From contig JAYOEC010000001.1 of the NCBI GenBank assembly GCA_038106525.1, positions 24,876 through 88,875 on the forward strand: a stretch of 64,000 nucleotides of DNA, in the 5' to 3' direction. Source of the DNA: Minisyncoccota bacterium. GTDB lineage: Bacteria > Patescibacteriota > Minisyncoccia > Phycocordibacterales > Phycocordibacteraceae. The notes under the pieces were generated by a model, which did not search any database, was not told the DNA's origin, and saw only the letters and a list, made by a program, of their open reading frames with translations. Shown here piece by piece: positions 1 to 51,862 of the stretch; position 1 is the stretch's first letter, and the number at the start of each line of letters is the position of its first letter. Made by a program: the position numbers and the translations under genes.

Positions 1-782
1 ACGACTGAACAAAACAATCAGCATGCTGATAAAATGGCCGAGGATCCTGTACCCACCCAAGAAAGTGAACACGGCCGCCAAGACGAAGATTGAATGAAAG
101 AGATTCGAGCCTCTTGCGGAGCGGGCCGTCGCCAAGAATGTAAAGATGTGCATCCGGAATCTCTGCCATCGTTCGTAAGACACGATCAAGGCGTTTTTCT
201 TTTGTGAGCCGTGAGACAACAAGCACCGCAGGCGCAGCTACGAGCTCCTTGGGGCGAGGCATCCCAGCAACAAACGGTGGCGGAGCAATGGGGAGTACGG
301 TGACGGGTCTTTTGGTATACTTCTGCACTTCGATTCGCAATTCCTCGCTGACCGTTCGAACACAATCAGCACCGCGAAGCGCAACGAGCGCGATCAGGAA
401 CTCGACCATCCGCTGCAACGATTCTGTCCGATATGCGGGGGAAAAAATGCTGGTGTGTATCTGCATTTCGAGCCGCGCCCGAGCTGCTCGCGCCGCAAGG
501 ATTCCAGCACAGCCAACAAAAGCAGGATCTTGTGCTGACACGACTTGAACCGCATGCTCCGTAGCAAGTCGGCGCGCAAGGCGGATGTATGCGATGTATG
601 CATGAAGGCGCCCGATACCGCCAGCCATATGCACCGTGCATGATGGGCCAAGAACAATCTCGCGCCCCTCGCCAGCGCCATAGACTACAATATGCAACCA
701 CCCCAACCTCGATGCATATCTCTGCATCCGCTCAGCCGCGCGCGAAGTCGGATCCAGGATGGTTCGATCGGTTGAGAGCATT
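1..782 (-). CDS. GT4-family glycosyltransferase, partial: start codon at ~782, runs off the window start. The ORF track does not list it because there is no stop in the window.
   Basis: Manual minus-strand translation gives a continuous frame MLSTDRTILDPTSRAAERMQRYASRLGWLHIVVYGAGEGREIVLGPS...RVHFLGWVQDPRPFYQHADCFVQS with a GT-B fold and GT4-like C-terminal motif. The short + and - ORFs at 204-795 in the track are other frames of this gene. Confidence 0.6.
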
Positions 783-789
783 AGCACCT

Positions 790-1893
790 TCATAGTGTGT
801 GCAGCACTGCTGCGGTACGATCCAACATCACGGCGTCGGTGAAGGAATGCATCCGCTCGAGCCCCGTTGCTGCATACTGCCGCGCCAGTTCAGGTTTTAG
901 AAGAAGCGCGCCAATGCGCGACTCAAGTGCGCTCAAATCATTCGGCGCTACGAGTGAACCATTTTCACCGTCAATGATTATCTCCGGATTACCGCCAACT
1001 GTTGTGGTTATTACCGGAGTCCCAACCGCAAGTGCTTCAAGAATAAGATGCGAAAATCCTTCGTAAGAAGTATTGAGCACAAACAAGTCCGCAGCACGCA
1101 GGTATCGAAGCAGCGCATCACGGTCAACCGCACCAGCAAAAATAACGGAAGATGAAAGTCGTTCTTCAGCAACGATTCGCTCAAGGCGTTCAAGGTCGGG
1201 GCCACTCCCCACAATGAAAAGAGTAAGGTCGGGGTGTTTCTTTTTCAGACGGCGACACACCCTAATGAGCACCTCAAACCCCTTCCACGGAACCAGCCGC
1301 CCAACAGATATCACCAGCTTTCCTGAAAAATGGAGCACGCCGCGGATGGTCTTTGGGTCGCCAACATCGCCAACTGAAACGCCATTGTAAATGACGGTGA
1401 TACGATCCGCCCGGATCCCCCACGCAGCAATAATGTTACCAAGGTATCGCGAAGGAACAATAACCGCCGCCGCGCTCCGTGCAACAAGCCGTTCAAGTGT
1501 ACGAAATGCAGACGGAACGAATGGCAGCGACGCCTGCTGAAATGTCTCGATCGTGCCCTGATACCCAAACCGCTGCGTCGACTGCTCCCACGCGTAATCG
1601 CCGACAATCTTGAGCAAAAACTTTTTCCGCAAGACTGTTGCAGCGAGAACCGCAGGAATACCGACGGAAAACGGATCAAGTGCGAGGACTGCGTCCGCGC
1701 GTCGGAGCGCGCGGAGCAGCATAAAGAAAAATATGAGATGTCTCAACCCTCGCGGGTACCGTCGCACCAAAGCAAACGGCACCACGACCACTTCAATCCC
1801 CCGCTCAGGCAGCCCATCCTCAATGCTACGAGCATAGGTCGCCGGCCCCCCGATGTCGGGCGGATACAGACCGGTAGCAACAAGAAGGCGCAT
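790..1893 (-). CDS. Glycosyltransferase family 1/4 (GT-B)
   Basis: C-terminal motif ...SYEGFSHLILEALAVGTPVITTTVGGNPEIIIDGENGSLV typical of GT4. Start moved to MRLLVATGLYPPDIGG (M44 of the track ORF) to remove a 122-nt overlap with the upstream GT. Confidence 0.8.
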   Translation of the reverse strand: MRLLVATGLYPPDIGGPATYARSIEDGLPERGIEVVVVPFALVRRYPRGLRHLIFFFMLLRALRRADAVLALDPFSVGIPAVLAATVLRKKFLLKIVGDYAWEQSTQRFGYQGTIETFQQASLPFVPSAFRTLERLVARSAAAVIVPSRYLGNIIAAWGIRADRITVIYNGVSVGDVGDPKTIRGVLHFSGKLVISVGRLVPWKGFEVLIRVCRRLKKKHPDLTLFIVGSGPDLERLERIVAEERLSSSVIFAGAVDRDALLRYLRAADLFVLNTSYEGFSHLILEALAVGTPVITTTVGGNPEIIIDGENGSLVAPNDLSALESRIGALLLKPELARQYAATGLERMHSFTDAVMLDRTAAVLHTL

Positions 1894-1900
1894 GAGCGAA

Positions 1901-3049
1901 CTATAGCAAAGCAAAGACTTTCTCGCGCATTTCACTTGCAATCGTTCCCCATTCATACTGACGAAGCGCAAGTGCACGGGCACGAGTTGTAACTTCATTG
2001 ATAATGTCAGGATTCGCCACAATGTCTAGAACCGCAGAAACAATATCCTCGGGGGCATCTGGCCGCACCACCCACCCGGTCCCGCGCAGACCATCCAAAC
2101 GGACATCGGTCAAAAAATCAGTAATCCCGCCCACCCCGGTGCCGATGACCGGTAGACCAGCGGCAAACGCCTCAATAAACGCGTTCCCCATTCCTTCGGA
2201 ACGCGAGGGACGGACAAAAATACTCGAACTTCGCAAAAGCTCTCCAAGAGCACGGTGCGGGATGTATCCAAGAAACTGAACACGATCAGCGACTTTAAGT
2301 AAAGACGCAAGCATCTTCAATTCTGACTCATCAGGACCAACCCCAGCAATGACGAGAGAAACGCCCTGAAGTGCAGGAAGCGCGCGAATAATCGTGTCGA
2401 TGCCATTTTTATGCACCAACCGCGATGCGGTGACTAGCCTGATCGCATCCGGCGGATGCGTCGGACCGACAAACAGTGATGCATCCACCCCATTCGGAAC
2501 AACGACTACCCGTTCAGCACCCATCGAACGGGCCCATGACGCCAGGTACTGCGAGATACACTGCACCACTGCGGCCTTTCGAAATGCAATGCGGAGCAAA
2601 AGATAGAAAGGAAGAATGTGTGGACGAAGAAATACATGACGGTACGAATCCCCTTCTTGAAGAGTAATCGAAAACGGTAGCACCACACCAAGCATCCTCA
2701 AAAGCAGTATCGGAAAGGTCATATATGCCATCATCGCCCACAGCGCATCGAAAGGTCGTTCGGTATGCGCGGCGAATGCAGCAAGTGCAGCTCGCGGTAC
2801 AAATAACACCTTATCAACATACCGATCACCAAGCCCTACCCGTCGCACGGTAACCGATCCGATTTGCTCAACTGGTGCATCAGCCACACGGCGGCGCATG
2901 GTAATCATTTCGAAGTGGTATGCGCTCTTCGGCAGTCGGTCAGTAATCTCCTTAAGTGCAACCTCGGCACCGCCAACATCGGGGAAGTATGAGAGAGAAA
3001 AAATAAGAACCCGCTTTGCTGCAGGAGCGACTTTTGATGCCGATGTCAT
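1901..3049 (-). CDS. Glycosyltransferase family 1/4 (GT-B)
   Basis: RSEGMGNAFIEAFAAGLPVIGTGVGGITDFL... GT4 signature; N-terminus MTSASKVAPAAKRVLIFSLSYFPDVGGAEV. Confidence 0.8.
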   Translation of the reverse strand: MTSASKVAPAAKRVLIFSLSYFPDVGGAEVALKEITDRLPKSAYHFEMITMRRRVADAPVEQIGSVTVRRVGLGDRYVDKVLFVPRAALAAFAAHTERPFDALWAMMAYMTFPILLLRMLGVVLPFSITLQEGDSYRHVFLRPHILPFYLLLRIAFRKAAVVQCISQYLASWARSMGAERVVVVPNGVDASLFVGPTHPPDAIRLVTASRLVHKNGIDTIIRALPALQGVSLVIAGVGPDESELKMLASLLKVADRVQFLGYIPHRALGELLRSSSIFVRPSRSEGMGNAFIEAFAAGLPVIGTGVGGITDFLTDVRLDGLRGTGWVVRPDAPEDIVSAVLDIVANPDIINEVTTRARALALRQYEWGTIASEMREKVFALL

Positions 3050-3648
3050 TGTGGTATGTCCTCTACTATCTCATACTCGGACCCGGTACGATTCGGTACA
3101 CTCCTCAGCACCAGAAAGACGCAAGCCGAAAGGGCCGCAAGCAGTCCGGCCCAGAGAAACGAGAGCGACGGTCCCTGCAAAGGTCCCTGCCCTTCTGTCG
3201 CAACCGCCGCAAGAAGAAGTGCCTTCTCGTTACCTCCACTCTTCGGCTTCATGCCCTGATATCGAATCTGAGCAACAGTTGCCCCAGAGCGGTCTCTCAA
3301 CTCTAAAAGCTCTCCGGAATTTGAAAGAGAAAATGTGCTATCGAAAACTACTTCCGTCGAGTTTGGATGTTCGCTCAAAAAGGTCGCTGCGTCGGCAGCA
3401 ATAATCGCACTCGCGCCTGGAGCAAGTTCGGAACTGCCCAATGCAGTAATGCGATGGACACTACCTCCTTCAAAAAGCCTGAGGTCGGTAACAATAACAG
3501 GAACCGGAGATGTATTGAGGATTCGGACCCACTCACGGTTGTGGTCGCTGCCGTCCGGGTTGTACTCAATATGCGCAAACGACATCGCACTTGCTGTAAG
3601 AGGCATGAGAAGTGCGAATGTACTGTTACGCAGGAATCGGGGCAACAT
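3046..3648 (-). CDS. Lamin-tail-domain (LTD) protein with signal peptide and C-terminal TM anchor
   Basis: Start re-assigned to MLPRFLRNSTFALLMPLTASAMSFA (signal-peptide-like). LTD-like core FAHIEYNPDGSDHNREWVRILNTSPVPVIVTDLRLFEGG...SNSGELLELRDRSGATVAQIRY. Hydrophobic C-terminal helix LSFLWAGLLAALSACVFLVL. Confidence 0.65.
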   Translation of the reverse strand: MLPRFLRNSTFALLMPLTASAMSFAHIEYNPDGSDHNREWVRILNTSPVPVIVTDLRLFEGGSVHRITALGSSELAPGASAIIAADAATFLSEHPNSTEVVFDSTFSLSNSGELLELRDRSGATVAQIRYQGMKPKSGGNEKALLLAAVATEGQGPLQGPSLSFLWAGLLAALSACVFLVLRSVPNRTGSEYEIVEDIPQ

Positions 3649-5062
3649 ACATAAGGTCGCGCAGCTCACGCTCAGGAACTTCTTTTGGACTTTGTGATGG
3701 TGCGCCAGAAGCTTGGGGTGATGCAGCAGGAGGAGCGGTTGGAGGCCGCGGCTGTTTTTCCTCGCGAGGAACCGACGCCTGAGGCGGCGGTGCTTGTCCA
3801 GCCTTCTTTGCGAACATAGAACGAAATGCATCTGAAAATCCGGGCCCTCCAGATGCCGCCGGCGGCGCAGGCCGAGATCGCTCGGAACGGAATGATTCGT
3901 CAACCTCCGTGCGCGGTGTTGCATACTCGCGCCTCGATGTGAGGGCAATATCCTGCGGCGAGATCACCGTCCGCTCCGGAAGCTGCAGTGCCGATGCAAT
4001 AAATGGTTTTGAGCGGATGCCGTCGATCATCAGAGACACGGCGCACTCTCCGGGCTCAAACTGCTCGAGCTCAGCTTCCGTAAGATACGGATACACCACA
4101 CTGCCAGCCAACTTGAGATCAGCAGGGTGCGGCTGGAACGAAATGATTGATCCTGAGCGCGCAATCGCCTGCTCGCGGATTGGGAGATCGCCTTCTCGAT
4201 ACGCAGTGTCGGCAATCTGCACAGCAATGCTGCGGTCACTCAGCATCCGTTCGACATCAACCACACTAAGATACCTCAGACAATCGTGCAGGTACAATGC
4301 GTGGGGGCCACTCGCGGCTGCTGCAACTCGCGCTGCATATACTCCGAGCCTGACGAGCGGCGTAATTCGAGTAGGAAAGATCCTAATCCTCGAAACATCA
4401 AGAATGATACTGCGCCCAGCGCGAAGCGAGTCAAACGAAAATTTTCCGGATCGCTGCCCGATAAGATTTCGGACCATGGTGTCCTTGGCAAGGTATCGTC
4501 CAGTATCGGCAATAATGTTTGCGGCATCAGCATCCTCAGTTACCAGAGCAGAAAAATCGCGGTCGCTGTCCTTAAGATCGGACCGGAATCCTGCATCAGT
4601 CACAACCGAGTGCAGCATGAGCGGGGTTGTGTGGGGATTTTCCATCGTATAGGTGGCAGCAGCTGAGACGAGCGGACCCTCAGGAACACCATAGAGGGAC
4701 GCGAGAAGTTCGCGATATAATTCGCGACCACGCGCAGTAGTGCGAAAATCTCCTGCAACATCCCACGAAAACGGATACTCGGCATCCGCAGCATCAAGGT
4801 ATATGACTCGTTCTTCCGCTCCGCTTGGGAGTCGCTCAAGGATAAGTTGTGTAAGCACTCCGGTAGCATCAACAATAACCGTACCGATGCCCCGCTCAAT
4901 ATCCTGAAGCGCCATGCGCGCAAGCATGTGCGCGCGGCCGGATCCGACTTTCCCAGATACCAAGAGATGTTGCAACCGATCAGCATCCCGTATCCCGAAC
5001 GGAGTTACTCGTCCTTTAAATGAGGTTGCTGCAAGGTAGGTGATGCGTGAACCCCAATCCAT
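3626..5062 (-). CDS. HerA/FtsK-superfamily (DUF87/AAA_10-like) P-loop NTPase with a degenerate Walker A and a Pro/Ala-rich low-complexity C-terminal tail
   Basis: RLQHLLVSGKVGSGRAHMLARMALQDIERGIGTVIVDATGVL resembles the h-l-i-G-x-T-G-S-G-K-S...iDpkGe pattern of HerA/TraD/FtsK ATPases, but reads GSGRA (K to R, S/T to A). Walker-B-like RSIILDVSR. C-terminal tail PAPPAASGGPG...PPPQASVPREEKQPRPPTAPPAASPQASGAPSQSP. Confidence 0.6.
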   Translation of the reverse strand: MDWGSRITYLAATSFKGRVTPFGIRDADRLQHLLVSGKVGSGRAHMLARMALQDIERGIGTVIVDATGVLTQLILERLPSGAEERVIYLDAADAEYPFSWDVAGDFRTTARGRELYRELLASLYGVPEGPLVSAAATYTMENPHTTPLMLHSVVTDAGFRSDLKDSDRDFSALVTEDADAANIIADTGRYLAKDTMVRNLIGQRSGKFSFDSLRAGRSIILDVSRIRIFPTRITPLVRLGVYAARVAAAASGPHALYLHDCLRYLSVVDVERMLSDRSIAVQIADTAYREGDLPIREQAIARSGSIISFQPHPADLKLAGSVVYPYLTEAELEQFEPGECAVSLMIDGIRSKPFIASALQLPERTVISPQDIALTSRREYATPRTEVDESFRSERSRPAPPAASGGPGFSDAFRSMFAKKAGQAPPPQASVPREEKQPRPPTAPPAASPQASGAPSQSPKEVPERELRDLMYVAPIPA

Positions 5063-5099
5063 AGCGACAGCTTACAGGTTCTCGGCAGTCGATTCCAGT

Positions 5100-6308
5100 T
5101 CATTCCGCCGCACCTGAGGACGACAGTACCTCGCGCAAGTTTGCATACTTGTTCGCAGGATCCCAAAAAATCCACGAAGTCAATCCTGCCATTTCTGCCC
5201 CCCTGATCTGCGCTTGGATATCTTCTGGCCGATAATCTTTTCCGTAGTCAAAGTCCTGAAGCCACGGTCGCAGTATCCGCGCCGGATAGACGGACTTCGT
5301 ATAGCGTTGCGGCGAAGTAGACGCAACCGGAATCCCCGCAAGGGTTTGCACTAAAGTCGATGTCGCAAGCGCACGATCTACCGCCGCACTCATCGAAATG
5401 CGAATAATCTCAAGCGGATGCTGGTTCGGATTTCCGAGATCTCTGAAATTTTTTGGATAGTGCGACGGATAGACCATGGGCATGATGTAATCAAAGTACG
5501 GCATTGCTCGTTCAAGCTGCTGCCCGATATTAAGGTCATCGGTGTTTGTAGTCGTCATGCCGAATAGGTCAGCGGACATTACTGCCCCTGTCGGCTTGAC
5601 CGCCGCATGAAGGTACGCGAAAAATTGTTCAACCGCGTCAGGCTTGTTTGGGTTCTGATATCGAGCATCCGCCATCGGGCCATCGGATGGGTAGCGGATG
5701 TAATCGTAATTAAGTTCATCAAAGCCGATCTCTGTATGCGCGACACGCGAGAGTTCGGTTACATAGTCCCAGTATGGACGATACGACACATCAATAAACG
5801 AAAGTCCTTTAAAATCCTTCCACGGACCGCCTTTGGATGCGCTCTGAACTGCGGACTCCGGATGTTTTGAAGTGTAGTATGGGTCCTGAAACACAGTAAT
5901 CCGCCCAATCACATACACCCCCTTCTCATGCAATGCTGCAACAAATGAACGCATATCTACGGCGCCGCACGCATCCGAAACCGAATCAGCAAGAGTTGGA
6001 TTGTCGGTAGGGAAAGCAATCTTCCCCGTGTAGTCCTTTATGTCAATAACCACCGCATTCAAGGATGTCGACTCGATGAGGCGTACCAGGTCGTCCCGGA
6101 AACTCGGCGTACCAACGACGCACTGCGACATGTAGATTCCTCGCAACGGATCAGGAGTTTGTATGTATGCGTGCTGAGGAGCGGCTGGTTCAGTGAGGCG
6201 AGGTTCAAAAGCCTCTGCGGCACTATCCCACTTTCCCGGCACCAGATATCCAAGCGCACAGATGCCCAAAAAAAGCGCGAGGAGGAGCGCGCCGTATAGA
6301 TTACGCAT
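5100..6308 (-). CDS. Putative glycoside hydrolase (TIM-barrel, GHL10/DUF4015-like), secreted or membrane-anchored
   Basis: Start moved to MRNLYGALLLALFLGICALGYLVPG (signal/TM). Conserved block GRITVFQDPYYTSKHPESA...GFDELNYDYIRYPSDG typical of the uncharacterised hypothetical glycosyl hydrolase family. Confidence 0.6.
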   Translation of the reverse strand: MRNLYGALLLALFLGICALGYLVPGKWDSAAEAFEPRLTEPAAPQHAYIQTPDPLRGIYMSQCVVGTPSFRDDLVRLIESTSLNAVVIDIKDYTGKIAFPTDNPTLADSVSDACGAVDMRSFVAALHEKGVYVIGRITVFQDPYYTSKHPESAVQSASKGGPWKDFKGLSFIDVSYRPYWDYVTELSRVAHTEIGFDELNYDYIRYPSDGPMADARYQNPNKPDAVEQFFAYLHAAVKPTGAVMSADLFGMTTTNTDDLNIGQQLERAMPYFDYIMPMVYPSHYPKNFRDLGNPNQHPLEIIRISMSAAVDRALATSTLVQTLAGIPVASTSPQRYTKSVYPARILRPWLQDFDYGKDYRPEDIQAQIRGAEMAGLTSWIFWDPANKYANLREVLSSSGAAE

Positions 6309-6549
6309 CTGAACCATGCGGCACTTGGGGCTGTGGAGCATTTTCAGCATAGGCATCGGTGACGCGGCCGCCACCGAGCGCACGAAGCATCCACAGTCGC
6401 TCAACACGCATCAGCAATCCGAGAACGATGAGCGCAGCGCCAGCGCCGACCGCAATCCATGTTTTTGCCACGAGCGGCAGTCCGGTAAACGGCAAAAATG
6501 CAACGATGACACCGACACATACCACGAGCATCGCTTTTGACATGCACAC
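6301..6549 (-). CDS. Small two-TM membrane protein (hypothetical)
   Basis: 82 aa with two hydrophobic helices (MLVVCVGVIVAFLPFTGLPLV; WIAVGAGAALIVLGLLM). Same strand and tightly packed between rsmI and the GH gene. No homology assignable. Confidence 0.35.
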   Translation of the reverse strand: MCMSKAMLVVCVGVIVAFLPFTGLPLVAKTWIAVGAGAALIVLGLLMRVERLWMLRALGGGRVTDAYAENAPQPQVPHGSDA

Positions 6550-6552
6550 ATT

Positions 6553-7251
6553 CTAGCAAGCGCTCAGAACCACGACAAACTCGCCCCGAACGGGGATATC
6601 GTGTCCAATTCGTTCAGAAAGCTCTCTCACGGAACCAACCGCAACCTGCTCGTATAGCTTCGTCAGCTCCCTTGCAATAACTGCGTGCCGATCGGGAGCC
6701 TTGTCTACAAGTTCCAAAAAAAGTTTCTGAATCCGGTGCGGAGATTCGTAGCACACCAGTGCATAGCCACTCGCGAGTGCCTGATCAAGCTTCTTTTGCC
6801 TCCCCTTCTTATGCGGCAAAAACCCGACAAAGAGAAATTCTGAAAATGGTAGACCTGAAACCGAAAGCGCAGCGGTCAGTGCAGACGGTCCCGGGATGGG
6901 AACAATTGCGCCCTCGCCGCACCGCTCGCGCACCAGCTGCACCAACAGTCCACCAGGATCAGAAATACCCGGCGTCCCCGCGTCAGTAACATATGCAACT
7001 GACTTCCCTGACGCAACCAGCATTGCAACTCGCTCAAATGCCGCGCGCGGCGACCGCGCGCGAAGTGACAGTAGCGGCTTCTTAATCGCATACCGCGCGA
7101 GGAGTTTTGCGGTTACTCGAGTATCCTCTGCCACTACAGAGTCGACTTCCTTCAAAACTTCAAGCGCGCGGTTAGTAATATCCCCGAGGTTGCCAATCGG
7201 GGTAGCGAGGACGAACAACACATTGCCCTTCATACCAGTACTTAACCACAC
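6553..7251 (-). CDS. rsmI: 16S rRNA (cytidine1402-2'-O)-methyltransferase RsmI
   Basis: NVLFVLATPIGNLGDITNRALEVLKEVDSVVAEDTRVTAKLL... tetrapyrrole-methylase-fold RsmI signature; 232 aa. Confidence 0.85.
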   Translation of the reverse strand: MWLSTGMKGNVLFVLATPIGNLGDITNRALEVLKEVDSVVAEDTRVTAKLLARYAIKKPLLSLRARSPRAAFERVAMLVASGKSVAYVTDAGTPGISDPGGLLVQLVRERCGEGAIVPIPGPSALTAALSVSGLPFSEFLFVGFLPHKKGRQKKLDQALASGYALVCYESPHRIQKLFLELVDKAPDRHAVIARELTKLYEQVAVGSVRELSERIGHDIPVRGEFVVVLSAC

Positions 7252-7285
7252 CCTGAAGGAAGTACAAATCAGGTACTATGGACTG

Positions 7286-8698
7286 ATGCAAAGAGTCCAC
7301 TGCATCGGAATTGCAGGCATGGGTATGAGCGCTATTGCTGTACTGCTCAAAGAGGCCGGATACCATGTTACCGGATCGGACGAGGGTCTGTACCCGCCTG
7401 CGAGCGAGTACCTGCGCGAATCCGGGATTACTGTATTTGAAGGATACACGCCGCAGCATATCCCCGATGATACTGACTGGTTCATCATCGGCAGAAATGC
7501 GAAACTTGATCCAAGTACCAATGCCGAGGTGCGCGCCGCACTCGAGAGCGGGAAGCCGGTGCGGACCTTCCCCGAAGTGCTCGGTGAGCTTGGAAAAAAA
7601 TCACGCGTGCTCGTGGTCGCAGGGAGCTACGGAAAATCAACCAGTACCACACTCATCGCATGGTGCCTAGCCAGCGCAGGAAAAGATCCTTCGTATTTCA
7701 TAGGAGCTTTCCCGTTCGACCTCCCAAGAACCGCACGGCTCGGATCTGGAAATTTTTTCGTCATGGAGGGCGACGAGTACCCAACCTCCCATCAGGACCC
7801 GCGGTCAAAATTTTTGCACCTCGGCGCGCACGATGTACTGCTCACTGGAGCAGTACACGACCATGTAAATGTCTTTCCGACCGCGGACGACTACGAACGC
7901 GCATTTGTACCACTCATTGCAGGTCTGCCTGAGCAGGGGGTTATCGTCGCTGCGCGCGGAGAGGAAACGGAGCGGATACTTGCGCATGCCGGAAGGTCAG
8001 CAGTTATGTACGGGATTGGCGCATCTTCCGCTGGCTATGCTGCCACAGATATCCGCTTTGCTGAGCGAAGCTCCTTTGTTCTCAGAAAAGATGGCGCTGC
8101 TCTCGGAACACTTGAGACGGTCCTCCTCGGATCGCATAATATTGAAAACATCGTCGGAGCGGCGGCGATGCTGCTTGAGACTGGCGCACTGAGTTTTGAC
8201 GAAATAAGCACCGCAGTCGCCACATGCACCGGCGTCCGCCGCCGCCTTGATCTTTTGACTCCTGATTCGTCCGTACGCACCTATGAGGGGTTCGGTTCAT
8301 CGTATGAAAAAGCACGCGCCGCGATCAAAGCAATGAGGCTGCACTTCCCTGAGCGACGATTGGTAATTATATTTGAACCGCACACCTTCAGTTGGAGGAA
8401 TCGTAACTCCATACACTGGTACGATACGGTCTTTGCAGAAGCGAGCCGCGTGCTGGTATACGAACCCGCGAGACAAGGAAGCGAGACGCACGCGCAGCTG
8501 AATCAGGCAGAGATTGTTAATCGACTTCATCTTGCCGGAGTTCGTGCAGAGGCGTTGGATGAAGCTGCAGGAAATGCGCATATCCTTCAAAGCCTCGAAC
8601 CAGGAGATGTCGCGCTTATCTTAAGCTCCGGTAACTTAGGAGGGATTCTTGACACACTCCCAGCTGCCATCACTGCAGCATTTCCAAAATCCGCATGA
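7286..8698 (+). CDS. mpl: UDP-N-acetylmuramate:L-alanyl-gamma-D-glutamyl-meso-diaminopimelate ligase (Mpl-type Mur ligase)
   Basis: True start MQRVHCIGIAGMGMSAIAVLLKEAGYHVTGSD at 7286; the track's 5' extension overlaps rsmI on the opposite strand. Mpl-specific blocks: YPPASEYLRESGI, FFVMEGDEYPTSHQDPRSKF (vs E. coli Mpl FFVIEADEYDCAFFDKRSKF), GSHNIENIVGAAAM, VRRRLDLL, IFEPHTFSW, ILSSGNLGGI. Confidence 0.8.
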   Translation: MQRVHCIGIAGMGMSAIAVLLKEAGYHVTGSDEGLYPPASEYLRESGITVFEGYTPQHIPDDTDWFIIGRNAKLDPSTNAEVRAALESGKPVRTFPEVLGELGKKSRVLVVAGSYGKSTSTTLIAWCLASAGKDPSYFIGAFPFDLPRTARLGSGNFFVMEGDEYPTSHQDPRSKFLHLGAHDVLLTGAVHDHVNVFPTADDYERAFVPLIAGLPEQGVIVAARGEETERILAHAGRSAVMYGIGASSAGYAATDIRFAERSSFVLRKDGAALGTLETVLLGSHNIENIVGAAAMLLETGALSFDEISTAVATCTGVRRRLDLLTPDSSVRTYEGFGSSYEKARAAIKAMRLHFPERRLVIIFEPHTFSWRNRNSIHWYDTVFAEASRVLVYEPARQGSETHAQLNQAEIVNRLHLAGVRAEALDEAAGNAHILQSLEPGDVALILSSGNLGGILDTLPAAITAAFPKSA

Positions 8699-9366
8699 AA
8701 GTAATCCGCGAGGAATTCGGAGAGGACTATGGTAACTACCGCTTTGGATACTGCGTGTGGTGCCACCTGGAGCAGGATGATGAGCTTCGAGATATCTATG
8801 CAGGCGGATTTCTCCCATACTCAAAAAACCCAGAAGAGAAGAACACATTTTATATGGCACGGAGTGCTCGCGTCACGCTTAGCCAATTTGAGCCGTCGAG
8901 CGAAAATAGGAGGATTGCAAAAAGGTTCGATGGACAGGCCAGGCGCGAACTGCTTACTCCGGCAGAAGCAAAGACGGACCCGGAGTGCATCCCGATGGTG
9001 CTTGAGTACTTTTCAAAAAAACACGGCGCTATTGTCATGCCGGAAAATCGGCTTATCGGAATACTTGACACACCGCTCCCACTCAGAGTCGTACGGTATG
9101 TGGGCGACGCAGTGCTTGGGTATACATTTGAAATCGTAGCGGAGGGGGTGATGCACTTTTGGTATTCAGCGTACGATATGCGGTACGCGCAAAAATCTCT
9201 AGGCGCATGGCTTATGCTTGACTCAATTCGAAATGCAAAATCAGAGGGCAGAGCGCACGCGTATCTTGGCACCGTCTACGGCGAAAAGGGAAAATACAAA
9301 ATGAACTTTCAGCCGCTCGAATACTGGAACGGCACTGAATGGATTGGTGGGCGCGAGAGGACTTGA
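8695..9366 (+). CDS. ATE/Bpt-family aminoacyl-tRNA--protein transferase (arginyl/leucyl-tRNA protein transferase-like)
   Basis: N-terminal Cys motif FGYCVWC (ATE_N-like CGYC). C-terminal block HFWYSAYDMRYAQKSLGAWLMLDSIRNAKSEGRAHAYLGTVYGEKGKYKMNFQPLEYWNGTEW aligns with the Bpt/ATE_C pattern YSFYDP..SLG..L..I..AK..G...YLGY...C.KM.YK.NF.P.E...G.W. Start ATG overlaps the mpl stop (ATGA). Confidence 0.6.
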   Translation: MKVIREEFGEDYGNYRFGYCVWCHLEQDDELRDIYAGGFLPYSKNPEEKNTFYMARSARVTLSQFEPSSENRRIAKRFDGQARRELLTPAEAKTDPECIPMVLEYFSKKHGAIVMPENRLIGILDTPLPLRVVRYVGDAVLGYTFEIVAEGVMHFWYSAYDMRYAQKSLGAWLMLDSIRNAKSEGRAHAYLGTVYGEKGKYKMNFQPLEYWNGTEWIGGRERT

Positions 9367-9430
9367 ACCTCCACCCCCTTGCGGGGACTACGACCTGAAC
9401 GTAGCGTGTCTGCCATTTCACCACGCGCCC
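9345..9430 (-). tRNA. tRNA-Leu(CAG), long variable arm, CCA encoded
   Basis: Reverse complement: GGGCGCGTGGTGAAATGGCAGACACGCTACGTTCAGGTCGTAGTCCCCGCAAGGGGGTGGAGGTTCAAGTCCTCTCGCGCCCACCA. 7-bp acceptor, anticodon loop TTCAGGT (CAG), T-loop GGTTCAAGTCC. Its 3' end overlaps the last ~20 nt of the convergent Bpt-like CDS. Confidence 0.8.
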
Positions 9431-9470
9431 ATGTGGCTTAGTGCCTAGGATACTATAACAAAAAACCGAG

Positions 9471-9543
9471 TGCGCACTCTAGGATTCGAACCTAGGACCG
9501 CTCGAGTATCAGTCGAGTGCTCTACCAACTGAGCTAAGTGCGC
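9471..9543 (-). tRNA. tRNA-Ile(GAT), CCA not encoded
   Basis: Reverse complement: GCGCACTTAGCTCAGTTGGTAGAGCACTCGACTGATACTCGAGCGGTCCTAGGTTCGAATCCTAGAGTGCGCA. Anticodon loop CTGATAC (GAT). Immediately downstream of the 16S 3' end, as in rrn spacers. Confidence 0.8.
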
Positions 9544-9756
9544 ATGCTCATCCTATATACCAAAAAAAGCATTGCCCGTCGAGCGCCAAAACGCGACGAG
9601 CATCCAGATCCAAAGAGCTTTTCTTTCTTCTGCCCCGATCCACCCCCGTTTCGTGTATCGGGGTACCGAGCGCCAGTTTAGAGTTGTGCGCCAATACTCT
9701 GTGTCGTTAGACAATCGACCGGTAAGTCATCCCAAATTGTGGGACGACCTTTCCGT

Positions 9757-11215
<1,459 letters not shown>

Positions 11216-15784: not shown

Positions 15785-16845
15785 GAACTGCGCTCAGATA
15801 GTGGAACCACCGACTCGTACCTCCCCTTCGTCGTCGTAAACGCCTCGAGCGATGGCAATCGATATCGGTACCCATACAATCGTTCGATTTTTGATCCATC
15901 CATGACGATGGGGTAAGAATAGAAACGCCACACTCCAGGCGAAGTTGGGACCTTGCCGCGAGTAAGATGCCAAAAAATGAAGTATGCAAATCGGATGAAT
16001 GAAACCGGAATCAAGAGCACTCGCTTACCAACCGCTCGAGCCATATCCTTTGCAAACACCGGCGCCCCAGGCGGGGCAAGATTAAAAATCTCCTTTCGGC
16101 TCCCCTGCCACGAATCAAACGCAAGGAGTGCAACGATATCGCAGACATCATCCTCGTGGACGAACTGCCGAACCCACCATGGAGTCGCGGGAACAAAGGA
16201 AACCATAAGAGAGATAAGCCCGTACACGCCGCCGCGCAACTGACCAGAAAGCGCTGATTGGAGTCCGAATCGTATGCGGGCAAACCTGCCTCTCGGTCCG
16301 GTAATTGCCGCGGGACGCACCACACCAACTTTCGGTCCCTGCGGATACTTTGAAACAAACTCTGAAAGAATTTCCTCAACTCTCTTTTTCTCAACCCCAT
16401 AGAGATACTGCTCCTCTCGCATCGGCTCATCCTCAGTAAATCGATGCTGAACGGTGTTTGAACGGTACGCACCATAAATCGATGCGGTAGAAAAATGAAT
16501 CAGGCGTTCAACTGATGGGTGCAGAAACGCAAACTCAAACACCGCATGCGAGCCGTCGACATTCCACTTCCAGGTCGTCTCTGCTGCACCATAGAGCATC
16601 CTGATCTGCCATGCGGTATGCACTACAATGTCAGGATTTTCGGCACGGACGCGCTCTTGCCATGAACCATCTGCAGTATTTGCACTGATCCACAGCACTT
16701 TGCTGTTCCCAGAAAGAAATTCCGGCATTGATTCCTTATCGAGCGCAATAATTCGCTCTACATCGTCTCGTTTTGAAAACTGGTCGACCAGCATCGCACC
16801 GACATACCCGGCTGCACCAGTGATATATACTCTGTGTTGTTTCAT
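15781..16845 (-). CDS. NAD-dependent epimerase/dehydratase (SDR family)
   Basis: N-terminal Rossmann motif VYITGAAGYVGAMLVDQF, catalytic YGVEK (YxxxK). 4-nt overlap with the upstream sugar-transferase gene. Confidence 0.8.
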   Translation of the reverse strand: MKQHRVYITGAAGYVGAMLVDQFSKRDDVERIIALDKESMPEFLSGNSKVLWISANTADGSWQERVRAENPDIVVHTAWQIRMLYGAAETTWKWNVDGSHAVFEFAFLHPSVERLIHFSTASIYGAYRSNTVQHRFTEDEPMREEQYLYGVEKKRVEEILSEFVSKYPQGPKVGVVRPAAITGPRGRFARIRFGLQSALSGQLRGGVYGLISLMVSFVPATPWWVRQFVHEDDVCDIVALLAFDSWQGSRKEIFNLAPPGAPVFAKDMARAVGKRVLLIPVSFIRFAYFIFWHLTRGKVPTSPGVWRFYSYPIVMDGSKIERLYGYRYRLPSLEAFTTTKGRYESVVPLSERSS

Positions 16846-18173
16846 GCAGTAAGTAAGCGCCGCGCTATCGTACGCGCAGTCTTTAGTGTAATCGACAGAT
16901 CAAGAAGAAGCGAGCGATGCCGCACATAGTACAAGTCATACTGCAGGCGGATGCGCGATTCTTCAAGCGACTGAGGGCTGATATTGCCTGGCGCATACTT
17001 TTGATTCACTTGAGCCCATCCAGAGATTCCCGGGGTAACCGCGTACCGGAGACGATACAATGGGAGCGCATCCTGGAGTCGTTCTCCAAGCCCTACAATA
17101 TCGCTGCGCGGACCGATGAGCGACAACGCACCGGTAAGTACCGAAATCACCTGCGGCAGCTCATCAATCGAAGCCTTACGAAGCAATGCACCGACTCGCG
17201 TAACACGATTTTCACTCTCCCCGATCCAGGAACTCGAGGCGGATTCATTTCTTATCATGGTCCTGAATTTGTATACGCGGATACGAGTCCACCCCTTTCC
17301 AATCCGTTCTTGCGCAATAAAAAGAGGACCGGGGCCTTCAATCCGCTGGAAAAAGTACACAATTGGCGCACAGGAGATAAGAACACAGAGAAGAAACACC
17401 GATATGACACTATCAATCACTCGCTTAATCGCATACGAAACTATCGAAGCCGGAGAAGTGCGTGTCAGTGCGCTCGGATCAATGAGCGTAAGAGCCACCC
17501 GATCAAAAAGTGACTCATACATATATGCAGCGTCAAGCACTGGCACGCGCGGAGTATACGAACATCTGCGATCTACTACCGCAAGATCTGGGGTCTGCTG
17601 TGAAATATATCGGTCGACTGAACCTGCCGTGCCTGCCCCTTCGCAGGAAACAACCCCAAGGAGCTCGAACCGCGCGCGGGGTGTAGAGCGGATCTCCTTT
17701 GCAAGCTCATCGATATCAGGACCGTCGCCAACAATAACAACGCGCAGCGATGGGCGAAGTTCCTGAATGGCACGAAACACACCGAACCGCCACACGATAA
17801 TGAGCGCGGTAGAAAAAACAAAATACAACGCAAGTATCGTTTTGGGCTGCACGCTCACCGGCGCAAAGAAAAAGAAAGCTACCGCAATGCAGAAAATAAT
17901 GATCTGCGCATCAAGAACTGATTCGGCAATTGATTTTTCAAATAGTGCTGTTCGACGATCGTACAAACCAACACTAATAAAAATGAGTATGGAACATGCG
18001 AAAAGAAACAAAAATGGGAGGTGCAGTATCGCGTCATCAATACTCGGGAGCGTGAAGTGCCGGATGAAAAGCGCAAGCCACAAGGCACCAAAGAGCGCCG
18101 CGCAATCGCCCACAAAAAGGAGGAGTTGGTCTCGCCAGTAGGCAACGCGCATCGGTATACCATACCTTACCAT
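16842..18173 (-). CDS. Polyprenyl-phosphate glycosyl-1-phosphate transferase (bacterial sugar transferase, WbaP/PssY-like)
   Basis: Multi-TM N-terminus plus C-terminal Bac_transf domain: VYKFRTM...DELPQVISVLTGALSLIGPR. Confidence 0.85.
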   Translation of the reverse strand: MVRYGIPMRVAYWRDQLLLFVGDCAALFGALWLALFIRHFTLPSIDDAILHLPFLFLFACSILIFISVGLYDRRTALFEKSIAESVLDAQIIIFCIAVAFFFFAPVSVQPKTILALYFVFSTALIIVWRFGVFRAIQELRPSLRVVIVGDGPDIDELAKEIRSTPRARFELLGVVSCEGAGTAGSVDRYISQQTPDLAVVDRRCSYTPRVPVLDAAYMYESLFDRVALTLIDPSALTRTSPASIVSYAIKRVIDSVISVFLLCVLISCAPIVYFFQRIEGPGPLFIAQERIGKGWTRIRVYKFRTMIRNESASSSWIGESENRVTRVGALLRKASIDELPQVISVLTGALSLIGPRSDIVGLGERLQDALPLYRLRYAVTPGISGWAQVNQKYAPGNISPQSLEESRIRLQYDLYYVRHRSLLLDLSITLKTARTIARRLLTA

Positions 18174-21204: not shown

Positions 21205-21320
21205 CTCTGTTCTGGCGACTAGCTACTCTCCCCTTGCGAGTACCATCGCTACTACCGCGCTTAACTGCCAAGTTCGGAATGGGATTGGGTGTGACCACGG
21301 CGTCGAATCACCAGAACAGA
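21205..21320 (-). rRNA. rrf: 5S ribosomal RNA (compact, ~105-115 nt)
   Basis: Reverse complement CTGGTGATTCGACGCCGTGGTCACACCCAATCCCATTCCGAACTTGGCAGTTAAGCGCGGTAGTAGCGATGGTACTCGCAAGGGGAGAGTAGCTAGTCGCCAG. Flanked by 16-nt inverted repeats (21190-21205 and 21312-21327), a likely processing stem. Confidence 0.8.
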
Positions 21321-21401
21321 GCACTCGGCTCTGCGTACACTGACTCTTGCATCACAGCAACAACACCGAGCGGTACAATTGACTCGCTCATGGCGTTCAT
21401 A

Positions 21402-24398
<2,997 letters not shown>

Positions 24399-31100: not shown

Positions 31101-31655
31101 CTCAGGCGAGAGTGCGTTTGCCGGCTGCGTACCTGCAGTAACCGAAAGGCCAGTGCCTGCCGGAGTCGGGGTCGACGGAGTCGACGGACTTGATGCTGCG
31201 AACGCTGCCTGCGAAATCGGGCCGAAGTAGCCAGCCGCAGGAGAAACTCCCTTAGCTGCCTGCCATGCCTTCACTGCAGATTGCGTCTGAGCACCGAAGT
31301 AGCCCGTTGCGCCTGCCGGAATCGAGTAGCCCATCGAGATGAGAGCGTTCTGGAGGCAGGTCACATCGGCTCCTGAAGAACCGAGAGTCAAGCTGCGCGT
31401 AAAGGTGCACGAGCTTGACGGGGTTGACGGCGTAGACGGAACTGACGGGGTTGAACCCGTGAGCGACGCCTGGACATTTGCAATCGTGGTCGAATCAGCC
31501 CCGAAAGACTGAAGGAGCGACACGATCGCATCAATCTGGCTCTGCGTAAGCGCTGCTGCCTCTGCGCGAGGAGCTGCTACGAAAGCCACCGCAACCATGA
31601 GCGAGAGAGCAACGAATGCCGCTGCAATCTTCGCCGTAGATTGTGTAAGAGTCAT
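28182..31655 (-). CDS. Very large secreted cell-surface protein: signal peptide, peptidoglycan-binding-like domain, long Ser/Thr/Gly-rich beta-repeat region
   Basis: Signal peptide MTLTQSTAKIAAAFVALSLMVAVAFVAAPRAEA. PG_binding_1-like segment LTLGSSGADVTCLQNALISMGYSIPAGATGYFGAQTQSAVKAWQAAKGV. About 950 aa rich in T/S/G/V with repeated VT.SG motifs. The antisense ORF 29092..29889 is rejected. Confidence 0.8.
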   Translation of the reverse strand: MTLTQSTAKIAAAFVALSLMVAVAFVAAPRAEAAALTQSQIDAIVSLLQSFGADSTTIANVQASLTGSTPSVPSTPSTPSSSCTFTRSLTLGSSGADVTCLQNALISMGYSIPAGATGYFGAQTQSAVKAWQAAKGVSPAAGYFGPISQAAFAASSPSTPSTPTPAGTGLSVTAGTQPANALSPEGASRVPFTRFILTAGNDGDVTVSSIQVQRVGLGSNAAFAGVVLVDEATGVQIGTAKSFNSNNQAAIGQTMTIPRGTSKTFLVAGNMASSLNSYAGEAPAIAVIGVNTSATVTGSLPITGAYNVNNATLAVGTLSLDMSNAFASNSNSTKEIGTTNHKFTGFRLTAGSAEDVRLKSITWNQTGSVSSTDLANVVTVVNGVSYPTTLSADGKYYTSTFGNGVVIGKGNQIDVYVQADIIGSNASGRTVIFDVDKTTDIFGTGETYGYGISPSTTGASSVPGSRGTGTETTGTPYIYAAQVTVSGASVTTISKANEVPAQNVAINVPNQPLGGFVVDLKGEAMTVQSQVFYFNYSSGSASSNLLTNVTLVDQNGTVVAGPVDGVNVSGVAQKVTFTDSVTYKTGRGVYTLKGKLPSTVSGGVTIIASTTPSSDWSNIRGDVSGNTISLSTFSSAVTMNTMTIKAGSVSIGNASSPASQTIVSGGSSVLFTNFQFDATQSGEDVRFSSIPATLSFGGGAAVTELTGCQIFDGATALNTGSNTVNPSGSTGSTQTFTLDNPVTVAKGTVKTLGVRCNISGSATNNGTWAWDEGSASAYTFTGATSGTTITGSDASDSTITVTIGSASATIATDASSPSYAIASAGSTDVTNGVFRLRASNENISLTKLGLTLTNTASSSAGDLVKASIYDGATKVGEAYFVGSATTATSTFTTPVTLTKDVDKTLTVKLDLADVGTSQSVTFSGHLVAVNFLNAEGVGQSSGTTIFPSGSTSVSGTRVMKSFPTVALDTLSGTGVNDGKLLRFKVTADAKGSIGITEFNVNLATTTLNVTNVNIYGFTDSGYSVPISGVSSNGQLEASDNAVPASGNVEVAVQTSAAAATVIQVPAGQTRYFEVRGSVAGATSGASATTKLLGDSTFPSTSAGVSANPLLAAASLTTESFIWSPNSTTTAIRGDQDWTSGYGVLGLPSGGLTQTRSQ

Positions 31656-50494: not shown

Positions 50495-51862
50495 TCAAGG
50501 CGCAGCGGTCTTTGAATGGGACACGAGTAGGTACGCTCCAGCACCAGCAGTACCCAAAAGCCCAGCCATAAAAACGAAAACCCAATACGGGAGCGGCCTC
50601 CTTGGTGAGGCAGTTGTTGTTGCCTCAACAATGTCGCGAGAACCATCCGATGACCCGGCTGACGCACCAAGCACCAACCCACTCGCGGCCGCCATCGATT
50701 GTTGCTCTTGTTCTGCTCTCGGGATGCTTTTAGCTGAGAGCATGAGCTGCGCCGTATAGGTCACTGCGGGCATGCCATTTGGGTACTGAAGCAGTACTGT
50801 GCTCGGAACACTTGGGCGCACCCCTGTTACCGCACCGGCAAATGCAACAAGGGTCTGAGGGCGCACTATGGTGCGTGGAGGAAAGACGAATCGTGATCCG
50901 TCCGCACTCAAAATCCATCCACCAAGGTCAACCTCGTGAGAGGAGTGGTTCTTAATTTCTACCAGTTCTGGAGACACCGTACCGAACGAAAGATCCGCGG
51001 GCACCGCTGCAACCAGCACTCTGTCGGCAGCACTATATGCACCACTTGCAGCATCAGCAACCACCGTGTAACTCCCTGGATAGAGAAAAGTGTGCGCTAC
51101 CGATTGTCCTTCGGCGCTTGTTCCATCACCAAAACTCCACACCACGCGAGCACTCTCAATCCGCTCGCCGGCGAGGCCATAGACTACCGAGGAGAATATG
51201 AGCGGAGCCCCAACAATCGCGGTCCGATCATCGCCAGCTGTGATGCGGATCTTCGGGTCGACAGGAAACGAGCTGGTGCTTGGACTGCTCGACGCCGAAA
51301 CAGACGATGGTGTTGATGTCTCAGGAACCTCCGTTTCCTCTGAAGCAGCACCGGGCCCGCCACCGGGTGTTGGTTGAAGTGCTACCCAGCTTGAGCCGTT
51401 TTTCTGAAGTGATGTGCCGTCTCCTGCTCCGCCCATCCCTGGTGTATAGGTCACCGAGTCGATATCTGCTCCGGCGTTGTCACGCACAGCAATGCTTTCG
51501 CCATTCGTATTATTAAGCCCGCTGGTAAACGCAACATCGAAAAGAGTCCCTGAAAATCCAGGATAATCAGCAAGAAATGTAGTCGGGTCGTCTGCAATGA
51601 CTACATATGTTCCGGATGGAATAGTCTCGGCACCCGCAACAAGATTGAGTGAGTGATTAACGCCTCCCTCAAAAAGCTTCCAGTCGGAAAGAACTATCGG
51701 CTCGCCCGAATTCATAACCTCTATCCACTCGTGTTTCGTATCGGTACCGCTTGGATCATACATAATCTCCGAAATAAAAACTGCCGCAGAGGCGGCAGTG
51801 GGAGCTACAAAAACGGTCAGGAAGACGAGGAGCGGGATCGAGGCCCGATACATGCCTACCAC
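50495..51862 (-). CDS. Surface protein with two lamin-tail domains, signal peptide and C-terminal TM anchor
   Basis: Signal MVGMYRASIPLLVFLTVFVAPTAASAAVFISEIMYDPSGTDTKHEWIEVMNSGEPIVLSDWKLFEGG (LTD1). Second LTD VSPELVEIKNHSSHEVDLGGWILSADGSRFVFPPRTIVRPQTLVAFAG. C-terminal PYWVFVFMAGLLGTAGAGAYLLV. Confidence 0.7.
   Translation of the reverse strand: MVGMYRASIPLLVFLTVFVAPTAASAAVFISEIMYDPSGTDTKHEWIEVMNSGEPIVLSDWKLFEGGVNHSLNLVAGAETIPSGTYVVIADDPTTFLADYPGFSGTLFDVAFTSGLNNTNGESIAVRDNAGADIDSVTYTPGMGGAGDGTSLQKNGSSWVALQPTPGGGPGAASEETEVPETSTPSSVSASSSPSTSSFPVDPKIRITAGDDRTAIVGAPLIFSSVVYGLAGERIESARVVWSFGDGTSAEGQSVAHTFLYPGSYTVVADAASGAYSAADRVLVAAVPADLSFGTVSPELVEIKNHSSHEVDLGGWILSADGSRFVFPPRTIVRPQTLVAFAGAVTGVRPSVPSTVLLQYPNGMPAVTYTAQLMLSAKSIPRAEQEQQSMAAASGLVLGASAGSSDGSRDIVEATTTASPRRPLPYWVFVFMAGLLGTAGAGAYLLVSHSKTAAP

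Follow-up and report, generated by a model that had tools for sequence, protein, structure and literature searches.

Type IV coupling proteins (T4CPs), such as VirD4, TrwB, TraD and DotL, form one branch of the FtsK-HerA ATPases. HerA and VirB4, of the same superfamily, are active hexameric motors that work with nucleases or with the channels of type IV secretion systems (T4SSs). In the type VII secretion proteins EccC and EssC, degenerate FtsK-like domains have been retained not as motors but as modules for regulation or substrate binding, and these domains bind short C-terminal signal peptides of partner proteins. A survey of Patescibacteria counted 5,713 T4CP homologues in 2,918 genomes, of which only 148 lie near virB4; the role of the thousands encoded away from type IV secretion genes is an acknowledged open point, and exaptation of such orphans to another function cannot be ruled out (PMC12102498). 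The locus described here lies in a 64,000-nucleotide stretch from a Minisyncoccota bacterium (GenBank assembly GCA_038106525.1, contig JAYOEC010000001.1, positions 24,876 to 88,875), referred to below as the window; coordinates are those of the window unless another locus is named. Its central gene encodes a 478-aa protein that belongs to the VirD4/TrwB-type (T4CP) branch and is predicted to be catalytically dead. The tightest partner of this protein, as judged by gene fusions in relatives, is a membrane protein with a lamin-tail domain (LTD) that is encoded directly downstream. The two genes are:

3626..5062, minus strand: the 478-aa, soluble T4CP/HerA-like protein, predicted to be dead as an ATPase
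3046..3648, minus strand: the 200-aa LTD partner protein (Pfam LTD, E 4e-7)

The P-loop neighbourhood is the only part of the 478-aa protein that is recognisable by sequence (TrwB_AAD_bind, E 0.012; the NCBIfam model CedD, E 0.002; TraD, E 0.022). A phmmer search against the PDB aligned HLLVSGKVGSGRAHML with HLLVNGATGTGKSVLL of TrwB at E 0.18, and scores against T4CP profiles stay below the cut-off (15 bits against 20.5 for PF10412, and 13.5 against 521 for TraD_Ftype). As a profile of the whole family reached neither T4CPs nor HerA in the PDB by sequence, the links to T4CPs of known structure consist of that single-sequence P-loop match and of fold searches. The fold is the RecA-like ASCE fold of the FtsK-HerA superfamily (VirB4/VirD4/HerA clade), with an N-terminal beta-hairpin before the P-loop strand and an h-h-h-D-x-x-G strand after the Walker A helix, as in HerA and VirB4. 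An all-alpha domain is inserted in the nucleotide-binding domain (NBD); in the AlphaFold2 (AF2) model it appears as helices (residues 69-215) that follow the D-x-x-G strand and precede the next strand of the core, and Foldseek alignments to TrwB cover 392-435 columns with this region included. The assignment to the T4CPs is made because homologous intermediates pass T4CP Pfam models. One of them, a 754-aa Gottesmanbacteria protein (locus L030) whose gene adjoins a PrgI gene, matches the window protein with a BLASTP E value of 9e-30 over 417 residues and passes PF01935 (DUF87), PF10412 (TrwB_AAD_bind) and PF12696 (TraG-D_C). The closest canonical relatives, which are soluble and keep GKTGxGKST and VDEFQNF, pass PF10412, PF02534 (T4SS-DNA_transf) and PF12696, and some members of the family itself match DUF87 weakly. 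A hydropathy scan found no N-terminal transmembrane (TM) anchor in the window protein or in its soluble canonical relatives. A first-pass annotation of the letters had seen a HerA/TraD/FtsK-type Walker A neighbourhood and proposed similarity to HerA/FtsK-like folds; both hold, the similarity being detectable through the intermediates and the fold searches, and the nearest kin can be narrowed from generic HerA/FtsK proteins to T4CPs of the VirD4/TrwB type.

An exhaustive profile search returned 9,229 relatives, among which the family proper (at least 290 bits) is separated by a sharp gap from the remainder (at most 214 bits). The family proper amounts to about two dozen representatives at 50% identity, the alignments took in about 90 relatives, and full-length open reading frames (ORFs) with the invariant residues are found in >75 clusters of homologues. 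Every homologue with a named source comes from Patescibacteria (Parcubacteria, Paceibacteria and Kaiserbacteria). In a neighbour-joining tree the dead family is monophyletic with a long stem; the midpoint root falls on this stem, so the canonical subgroup from which the family arose cannot be read from the tree.

Three catalytic sites were compared between the family and its canonical relatives after all returned sequences had been aligned to the family profile. In the window protein they are located as follows:

4931..4954, minus strand: Walker A, residues 37-44, G-K-V-G-S-G-R-A, with Arg43 in place of Lys and Ala44 in place of Ser/Thr
4280..4297, minus strand: degenerate Walker B, residues 256-261, L-Y-L-H-D-C, with the Asp kept and the catalytic Glu replaced by Cys
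4205..4210, minus strand: former sensor, residues 285-286, Asp-Thr in place of His/Asn-Gln, from the family-wide alignment

Canonical relatives read G-K-T-G-x-G-K-S/T, with Lys in 100% and Ser/Thr in 99%, whereas the family reads G-K/R-x-G-S-G-R-A/G/S, with Arg in 94%; in the BLASTP alignment of the window protein with a canonical relative, GKVGSGRAH stands opposite GKTGTGKST. The strand after the Walker A helix carries D-P-H-G in canonical proteins and D-A-S/T-G in the family. At Walker B, where BLASTP sets LHDCLRYL against the canonical YVDEFQNF, canonical proteins have Asp in 85% and Glu in 86%, while the family keeps the Asp (92%) and follows it with Cys (60%), Ala or Thr. The sensor is H/N (99%) and Q (98%) in canonical relatives but D (92%) and T (75%) in the family, so that the window protein reads A-D-T instead of A-H-Q. 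The Arg-Ala pair that the first-pass annotation had reported at the Walker A Lys-Ser/Thr is thus confirmed by alignment with both TrwB and the canonical relatives, and the losses extend to the Walker B Glu and the sensor Gln. The question it raised, whether orthologues share the Lys-to-Arg change, is answered in the affirmative. Lys is kept in three full-length members (P0044, P0070 and P0074, reading GKP, GKA and DKT), and an intact Walker A, GKPGSGKS, is found in P0228 (locus L023) and its fragment P0090, yet P0228 reads D-T at Walker B and D-T at the sensor. Indeed, the Walker B Glu is absent from every Lys-keeping member of the family, which points to an old, fixed degeneration, and P0228 suggests that the P-loop Lys was the last to go, after the Walker B Glu and the sensor. 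Across the aligned family, the catalytic Glu and the sensor are universally lost, and the Lys-to-Arg change is nearly universal. Members are 36-53% identical and share 14 invariant columns. A sequencing error, a pseudogene or chance was considered as a cause and ruled out, since the same substitutions are kept family-wide, and the loss of catalytic residues is a fixed, selected state of the family.

The LTD partner has an N-terminal hydrophobic signal/anchor, one lamin-tail domain, a C-terminal TM segment and a 19-aa cytoplasmic tail. Its score against the LTD profile (PF00932) is 30.8 bits, just below the cut-off of 34.3; a precomputed PF00932 match exists for the same protein, and orthologous partners score 37-86 bits. 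The ATG of the LTD gene, at 3648, falls inside the last codons of the 478-aa gene, so that the two genes overlap by 23 nucleotides; this overlap, which the first-pass annotation had noted, was read again from the DNA and agrees with the NCBI gene model, in which the LTD protein has the same length of 200 aa. Twenty-seven family loci were examined, 25 of them with enough downstream sequence. An LTD-containing partner lies directly downstream in 20 of the 25, and in two of these (L015 and L020) it belongs to the same ORF as the ATPase-like gene. At three further loci (L001, L018 and L021) the partner is reduced to a protein of 50-107 aa with one TM segment and the tail but no LTD.

In-frame fusions of the two proteins occur in six representative sequences (P0068, P0076, P0077, P0082, P0083 and P0086). 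These begin with the NBD, a disordered linker, an E-[IV]-P-E-x-x-L-R-x-M-L-Y-V-x-P motif and a first TM segment (TM1), and continue with an extracellular LTD (with or without a PKD domain and a second LTD, and once with HHH_3), a second TM segment, a basic stretch and a [YF]-x-I-x-E tail. Every fusion has exactly two TM segments, both C-terminal to the NBD and flanking the LTD/PKD/HHH_3 part. ComEA-type HHH_3 domains, a DNA-binding helix-hairpin-helix type, stand at the N-terminus of the partners in three family lineages, namely P0076 (residues 499-564, E 7e-11), L026 (E 5e-18) and L029 (E 4e-20); the partners at L026 (10461-11687) and L029 (9540-10679) consist of a signal peptide, HHH_3, PKD, LTD, a TM segment and the tail.

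A second LTD protein is encoded far from the locus:

50495..51862, minus strand: distal LTD-PKD-LTD paralogue of 455 aa with a signal peptide and a C-terminal TM segment (Pfam LTD, E 2e-24, and PKD)

This paralogue is 44% identical (E 7e-115) to the L011 partner, which adjoins an ATPase-like gene, and ends in ...LLVSHSKTAAP without a Y-x-I-x-E tail. It may be a displaced full-length form of the partner. The window genome thus seems to have divided the partner in two: a mini-LTD protein with the tail, encoded beside the ATPase-like gene, and, 47 kb from it, a full-length copy that lacks the tail.

Conserved elements are also found outside the catalytic sites of the 478-aa protein and in the tail of its partner. 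They are:

4367..4399, minus strand: family-specific motif D222-x-S-R-I-R-x-F-P230-T231-R232, with D222, P230, T231 and R232 as invariant columns
3803..3838, minus strand: tail helix motif F409-S-D-A-F-R-S-M-F-A-K-K, consensus F-x-x-A-F-[RK]-x-I-F, predicted helical
3638..3682, minus strand: C-terminal motif E-V-P-E-x-x-L-R-x-L-M-Y-V-A-P, which extends over the start of the LTD gene and in fused homologues lies directly next to TM1
3049..3105, minus strand: cytoplasmic tail of the LTD protein, GSEYEIVEDIPQ, with the [YF]-x-I-x-E motif

In the family, D-L-S-R-I-R-x-F-P-T-R takes the place of the canonical N-L-S-K-G-x-I-G-E-D-N. The tail (residues ~395-478) is modelled by AF2 with low confidence (pLDDT 51-62) and in relatives is rich in Pro, Ala and Lys and variable in length, in agreement with the disordered tail of about 80 aa that had been described; the two conserved motifs inside it had been missed. 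A long disordered C-terminal tail that ends in a conserved short motif is also a feature of TraD-type T4CPs. In the tail helix, F409, F413, I416 and F417 are nearly invariant in the family, and the helix motif is found in 90 of 92 family members as against two of 126 canonical representatives and none of 73 canonical locus proteins. A role for it as a membrane-targeting helix was dropped, its hydrophobic moment (muH 0.33) being no better than that of 44% of shuffles. The closest canonical ATPases end in a related motif, KE[VI]PE[DE]VL[KR]K[VI]L. The tail motif of the partners reads GYTIIEE-like in split pairs, YSIKEI-like in fusions, EYEIVED in the window, and DEYEIIE or EEFTIIED in the partners of canonical ATPases. 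As both the C-terminal motif and the partner's tail motif occur in canonical pairs as well, the pairing and the two motifs are older than the loss of catalysis. Features peculiar to the dead family are the tail helix, the fusions and a much higher partner frequency (about 90% of dead-family loci compared with about 20-30% of canonical loci).

The frame of the LTD gene is also open for ~300 nt 5' of its ATG (3649-3948, minus strand), in the +1 frame relative to the tail of the 478-aa gene; an open frame is expected there because the region is GC-rich and of low complexity. Since relatives carry in-frame fusions, a frameshift product that occasionally joins the two genes is conceivable.

The two genes stand in a block of genes that are all on the minus strand and, in transcription order, encode RsmI, an 82-aa two-TM protein, a DUF4015 protein, the 478-aa protein, the LTD protein and three GT4 glycosyltransferases. 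The remaining members of the block are:

6553..7251, minus strand: RsmI-type methyltransferase (PF00590, E 6e-34), the conserved upstream edge of the syntenic block
6301..6549, minus strand: 82-aa two-TM protein, from the ORF list, whose ORF overlaps that of the DUF4015 protein
5100..6407, minus strand: membrane-anchored DUF4015 protein, a putative glycoside hydrolase of TIM-barrel type (PF13200, 275 bits, E 9e-82)
1901..3049, minus strand: GT4 glycosyltransferase a (Pfam Glycos_transf_1, E 6e-30), with a 4-nt overlap with the LTD stop codon
790..2022, minus strand: GT4 glycosyltransferase b (Pfam Glycos_transf_1, E 8e-43, and synteny)
1..793, minus strand: third GT4 glycosyltransferase, cut by the window edge (32% identity over 238 aa to the third GT4 of L002 by tblastn, E 1.5e-33)

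The gene order given by the first-pass annotation, with the two-TM, glycoside-hydrolase-like and LTD proteins on one strand, is reproduced by the ORFs and Pfam matches, and its three GT4 genes are all present, the third running off the window edge. The PF13200 match of the DUF4015 protein covers profile positions 1-313 of 313, and the true start of this protein is probably among the Met codons at 6308-6356. The only solved homologue, PDB 4s1a (E 9e-41), is uncharacterised, so that the glycoside hydrolase role is putative. The neighbours are conserved to different degrees in the family. GT4a follows downstream in every family locus with enough sequence, and the 82-aa protein is recognised at 46-64% identity in 15 family loci. 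Of the 23 family loci that can be assessed for DUF4015, 14 have it immediately upstream of the ATPase-like gene, and in one it lies at a distance of 5.6 kb. Of the co-occurrence with LTD and glycoside-hydrolase-like genes, for which a check had been suggested, the LTD part is therefore well supported (20 of 25 loci, and the fusions), while the glycoside-hydrolase-like link is looser.

For comparison, 80 metagenomic loci of the closest canonical relatives were collected and their neighbours clustered. Upstream of the ATPase gene and on the same strand, a Mur ligase gene was found at 21 of them, RsmI at 26, the small TM protein at 26 and DUF4015 at 55; after the ATPase gene, an LTD-PKD-LTD protein was found at 17 and GT4 at 46. 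The canonical relatives thus share the gene order RsmI, small TM, DUF4015, ATPase, (LTD), GT4s, which makes the window gene an ATPase-dead offshoot of a widespread orphan T4CP-like gene. Judged from this order, the position that the 478-aa gene holds is taken in other Patescibacteria by an ATPase with its catalytic residues intact. Median identities between the window and the canonical loci are 47% for RsmI, 45% for DUF4015, 38% for GT4a and 25% for the ATPase, as against 42% identity for the ATPase-like protein within its own family. The ATPase has hence diverged far more than its neighbours, as would be expected if catalytic constraint was released.

How the locus relates to the systems named at the outset can now be specified. 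Like T4CPs, the 478-aa protein has a Walker A neighbourhood that can be aligned by sequence. Unlike in T4CPs, the TM segments are supplied by a downstream or C-terminally fused LTD partner and none is N-terminal, all the catalytic residues named above (Walker A Lys-Ser/Thr, Walker B Glu, sensor Gln) have given way to others, and the conserved flanks are RsmI, DUF4015 and GT4 genes; in the window, no linkage to VirB4 or a relaxase (among the ten largest ORFs) or to a mobile element was seen. In contrast to HerA and VirB4, the locus has no NurA, Sir2 or DUF4297 partner. Similarly, the PADLOC profiles found no defence system and no Sir2, DUF4297 or nuclease partner of a HerA-type anti-phage system at the locus; the 478-aa protein gave only a 15.9-bit local match at the P-loop, and its neighbours gave none. 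EccC differs in having tandem domains with one active domain in the same polypeptide, where the 478-aa protein has a single, degenerate domain, and the gene contents of the type VII systems and of this locus are unrelated. The closest resemblance is to the orphan T4CPs of Patescibacteria, whose description the canonical relatives fit, being soluble and far from virB4; the two are matched by description (PMC12102498). As the window protein itself scores below the threshold of the hidden Markov models, it may escape such a survey.

Collectively, these observations can be accommodated by a model in which the 478-aa protein serves, within an envelope-glycan locus, as a cytoplasmic platform that does not hydrolyse nucleotides and is bound to the LTD membrane protein, a proposal to which we would give about an even chance. 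The ancestor would have been a soluble, catalytically intact T4CP-like ATPase, encoded at the same locus in many Patescibacteria and outside any T4SS. In the clade of the window, the Walker A Lys-Ser/Thr, the Walker B Glu and the sensor Gln would then have been replaced, the Arg-rich motif and the tail helix gained, and the protein tightly joined to the downstream bitopic LTD surface protein. Motor function would have been given up in favour of a cytoplasmic platform, probably a ring as in relatives, that is docked at the membrane via the LTD protein. The C-terminal E-V-P-E..L-R..Y-V-x-P motif would lie at the membrane beside TM1 of the partner, and the cytoplasmic Y-x-I-x-E tail of the partner is a likely second contact. 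Such a complex could hold the extracellular LTD module in place, arrange it, or pass signals to it or receive them, either as a static platform or as a switch. Nucleotide binding may persist in the 478-aa protein, as it can in RecA-like proteins whose Walker A Lys has been mutated to Arg.

It should, however, be noted that several observations weigh against this model. The P-loop glycines and the Walker B Asp are kept and Arg can contact phosphates, so that nucleotide binding, and even slow turnover, may have survived. No partner is encoded downstream at two of the 25 assessable family loci (L009 and L028). When the natural fusion P0068 was modelled with AF2, pLDDT values of only 41-59 were obtained for TM1 and the Y-x-I-x-E tail, so that the model lends the proposed contacts no structural backing, and the tail helix shows no measurable amphipathicity (muH 0.33, with 44% of shuffles as high). 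The link to glycan genes is also incomplete. At three loci of the family, an unrelated, membrane-anchored protein without a Pfam match stands where DUF4015 would be expected:

L022 4185-5315; L028 6821-7945; L007 ~6830-7953: protein of ~375 aa in the DUF4015 slot, between the small TM and ATPase-like genes

Further, the upstream block is absent or different in five closely related family loci, and the synteny with glycan genes could be a gene order inherited among related small genomes rather than a sign of functional coupling.

Other roles have to be weighed against the platform model. The whole module may make, export or remodel a surface glycopolymer, with the dead ring serving as its gate, scaffolding the TM partner or regulating the extracellular DUF4015 hydrolase; this is a tenable but unlikely alternative. 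It draws on DUF4015 upstream and two to four GT4 genes downstream (accompanied by an NAD-epimerase gene in many loci), in dead-family and canonical loci alike, and on the Mur ligases and the Bac_transf sugar transferase nearby. In Firmicutes, DUF4015 is fused to YkyA, a domain which in turn occurs in fusions with polysaccharide deacetylases (PMC12700454). However, 8-9 of the 23 assessable family loci have lost DUF4015 from its slot or carry another gene there while the LTD link holds, and shared ancestry among related small genomes may by itself account for the synteny. Moreover, we know of no FtsK-HerA ATPase that handles glycans. The domain content of some partners raises another possibility, a role with extracellular DNA, with an LTD/HHH partner that binds DNA at the surface and a T4CP-derived domain that forms the inner part of a receptor or uptake device. 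We regard such a role as doubtful, and equally doubtful is its corollary that the device is powered in canonical relatives and passive, or served by another motor, in the dead clade. HHH_3 of the ComEA type in three family lineages would suit this role, as would the relatedness of T4CPs to DNA-binding translocases and the weak NCBIfam match to CedD, an archaeal DNA-import ATPase. LTDs accompany extracellular nucleases such as ExeM (PMC6085458, PMC8289736), and ComEC is non-essential in one Saccharibacterium, for which other routes of nucleotide acquisition are expected (PMC12102498). Yet the window partner bears an LTD alone, none of the partners at the 80 canonical loci has HHH_3, the conserved block is without a nuclease, ComEC or DprA gene, and a dead ATPase cannot pump DNA. 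The LTD of ExeM is also dispensable for extracellular DNA degradation, and DNA binding by LTDs is putative (PMC6085458).

The remaining two explanations concern the protein itself. If Arg substituted for Lys in an unconventional P-loop, the 478-aa protein would be an active NTPase and a motor like its relatives. Its conserved P-loop residues G37, G40 and G42 and Walker B Asp260 would permit this, a few members keep Lys and one keeps GKS, and RecA K72R is an example of a RecA-like protein in which a Lys-to-Arg change can retain ATP binding. Nevertheless, Lys, Ser/Thr, Glu and the sensor Gln all changed together and stayed so, even the Lys-bearing members are without the catalytic Glu, and the identity of 25%, against 45-47% for the neighbours, is what release from catalytic constraint would produce; activity is accordingly regarded as very improbable. 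Least credible of all is that the protein serves as a genuine coupling protein in a conjugative or effector-translocating T4SS, or the decaying remnant of a mobile element. One homologue is named 'type IV secretion system DNA-binding domain-containing protein' by NCBI, and the gene of a distant canonical relative adjoins a PrgI gene. Against this stand the housekeeping flanks, which are syntenic across many genomes, and the lack of an N-terminal TM domain. The 64-kb window contains no further paralogue of the FtsK-HerA family of the 478-aa protein, and neither VirB4 nor a relaxase was seen among its ten largest ORFs. Full-length ORFs with invariant residues in >75 clusters speak against decay, and in the published survey only 148 of the 5,713 Patescibacteria homologues are near virB4 (PMC12102498). 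The first-pass annotation had suggested a scaffold or regulator of envelope assembly or of a secretion or pilus-like machine. The scaffold or regulator of envelope assembly fits the evidence and is to be taken as an inference, while a coupling role in a secretion system is disfavoured by the housekeeping flanks.

A broader proposal would bring the canonical and dead loci together. The orphan T4CP-like ATPase, the LTD/PKD/(HHH) partner, the small TM protein and DUF4015 might constitute a previously unrecognised, minimal envelope-spanning machine that is independent of T4SSs, although we hold this to be a speculative and rather improbable idea. With the same low probability, the ring of coupling proteins would move or receive a polymer (DNA, surface glycan or protein) through the single membrane and the wall, and the clade of the window would be its motor-off, partner-fused receptor or gate. 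The literature search found no description of the orphan T4CP locus, the LTD partner, the fusions or the ATPase-dead clade, and in the literature searched DUF4015 appears only in the context of Bacillus sporulation (PMC12700454). The present comparison places one large group of orphan coupling proteins in a conserved envelope locus with a defined membrane partner and so turns an orphan class into a defined two-protein module with testable contacts. It also offers a natural motor-off variant, since a whole clade appears to have given up ATPase chemistry and yet kept the protein, on the way from a translocase to a non-catalytic, membrane-associated component.

The rest of the window is of housekeeping character, with 16S, 23S and 5S rRNA genes, tRNA genes, four aminoacyl-tRNA synthetase genes, a genuine FtsK gene, and SHMT and SecDF-like genes. 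Two further envelope genes are found in it, one for a protein of 1157 aa in which Pfam recognises nothing but a peptidoglycan-binding domain (28182-31655, minus strand) and one for the Bac_transf initiating sugar transferase (16842-18173, minus strand). The rRNA genes are unlinked, as the 16S gene (9756-11214, minus strand) and the 23S and 5S genes (21210-24396, minus strand) have ~10 kb of protein-coding genes between them; genes for tRNA-Ile(GAT) and tRNA-Leu(CAG) come after the 16S gene (9345-9543). Finally, an isoleucyl-tRNA synthetase-like protein of 1134 aa (47064-50468, minus strand) has an unusual architecture, in which a His_Phos_1 insert (E 2e-32, residues 504-664) splits the two halves of the catalytic domain.

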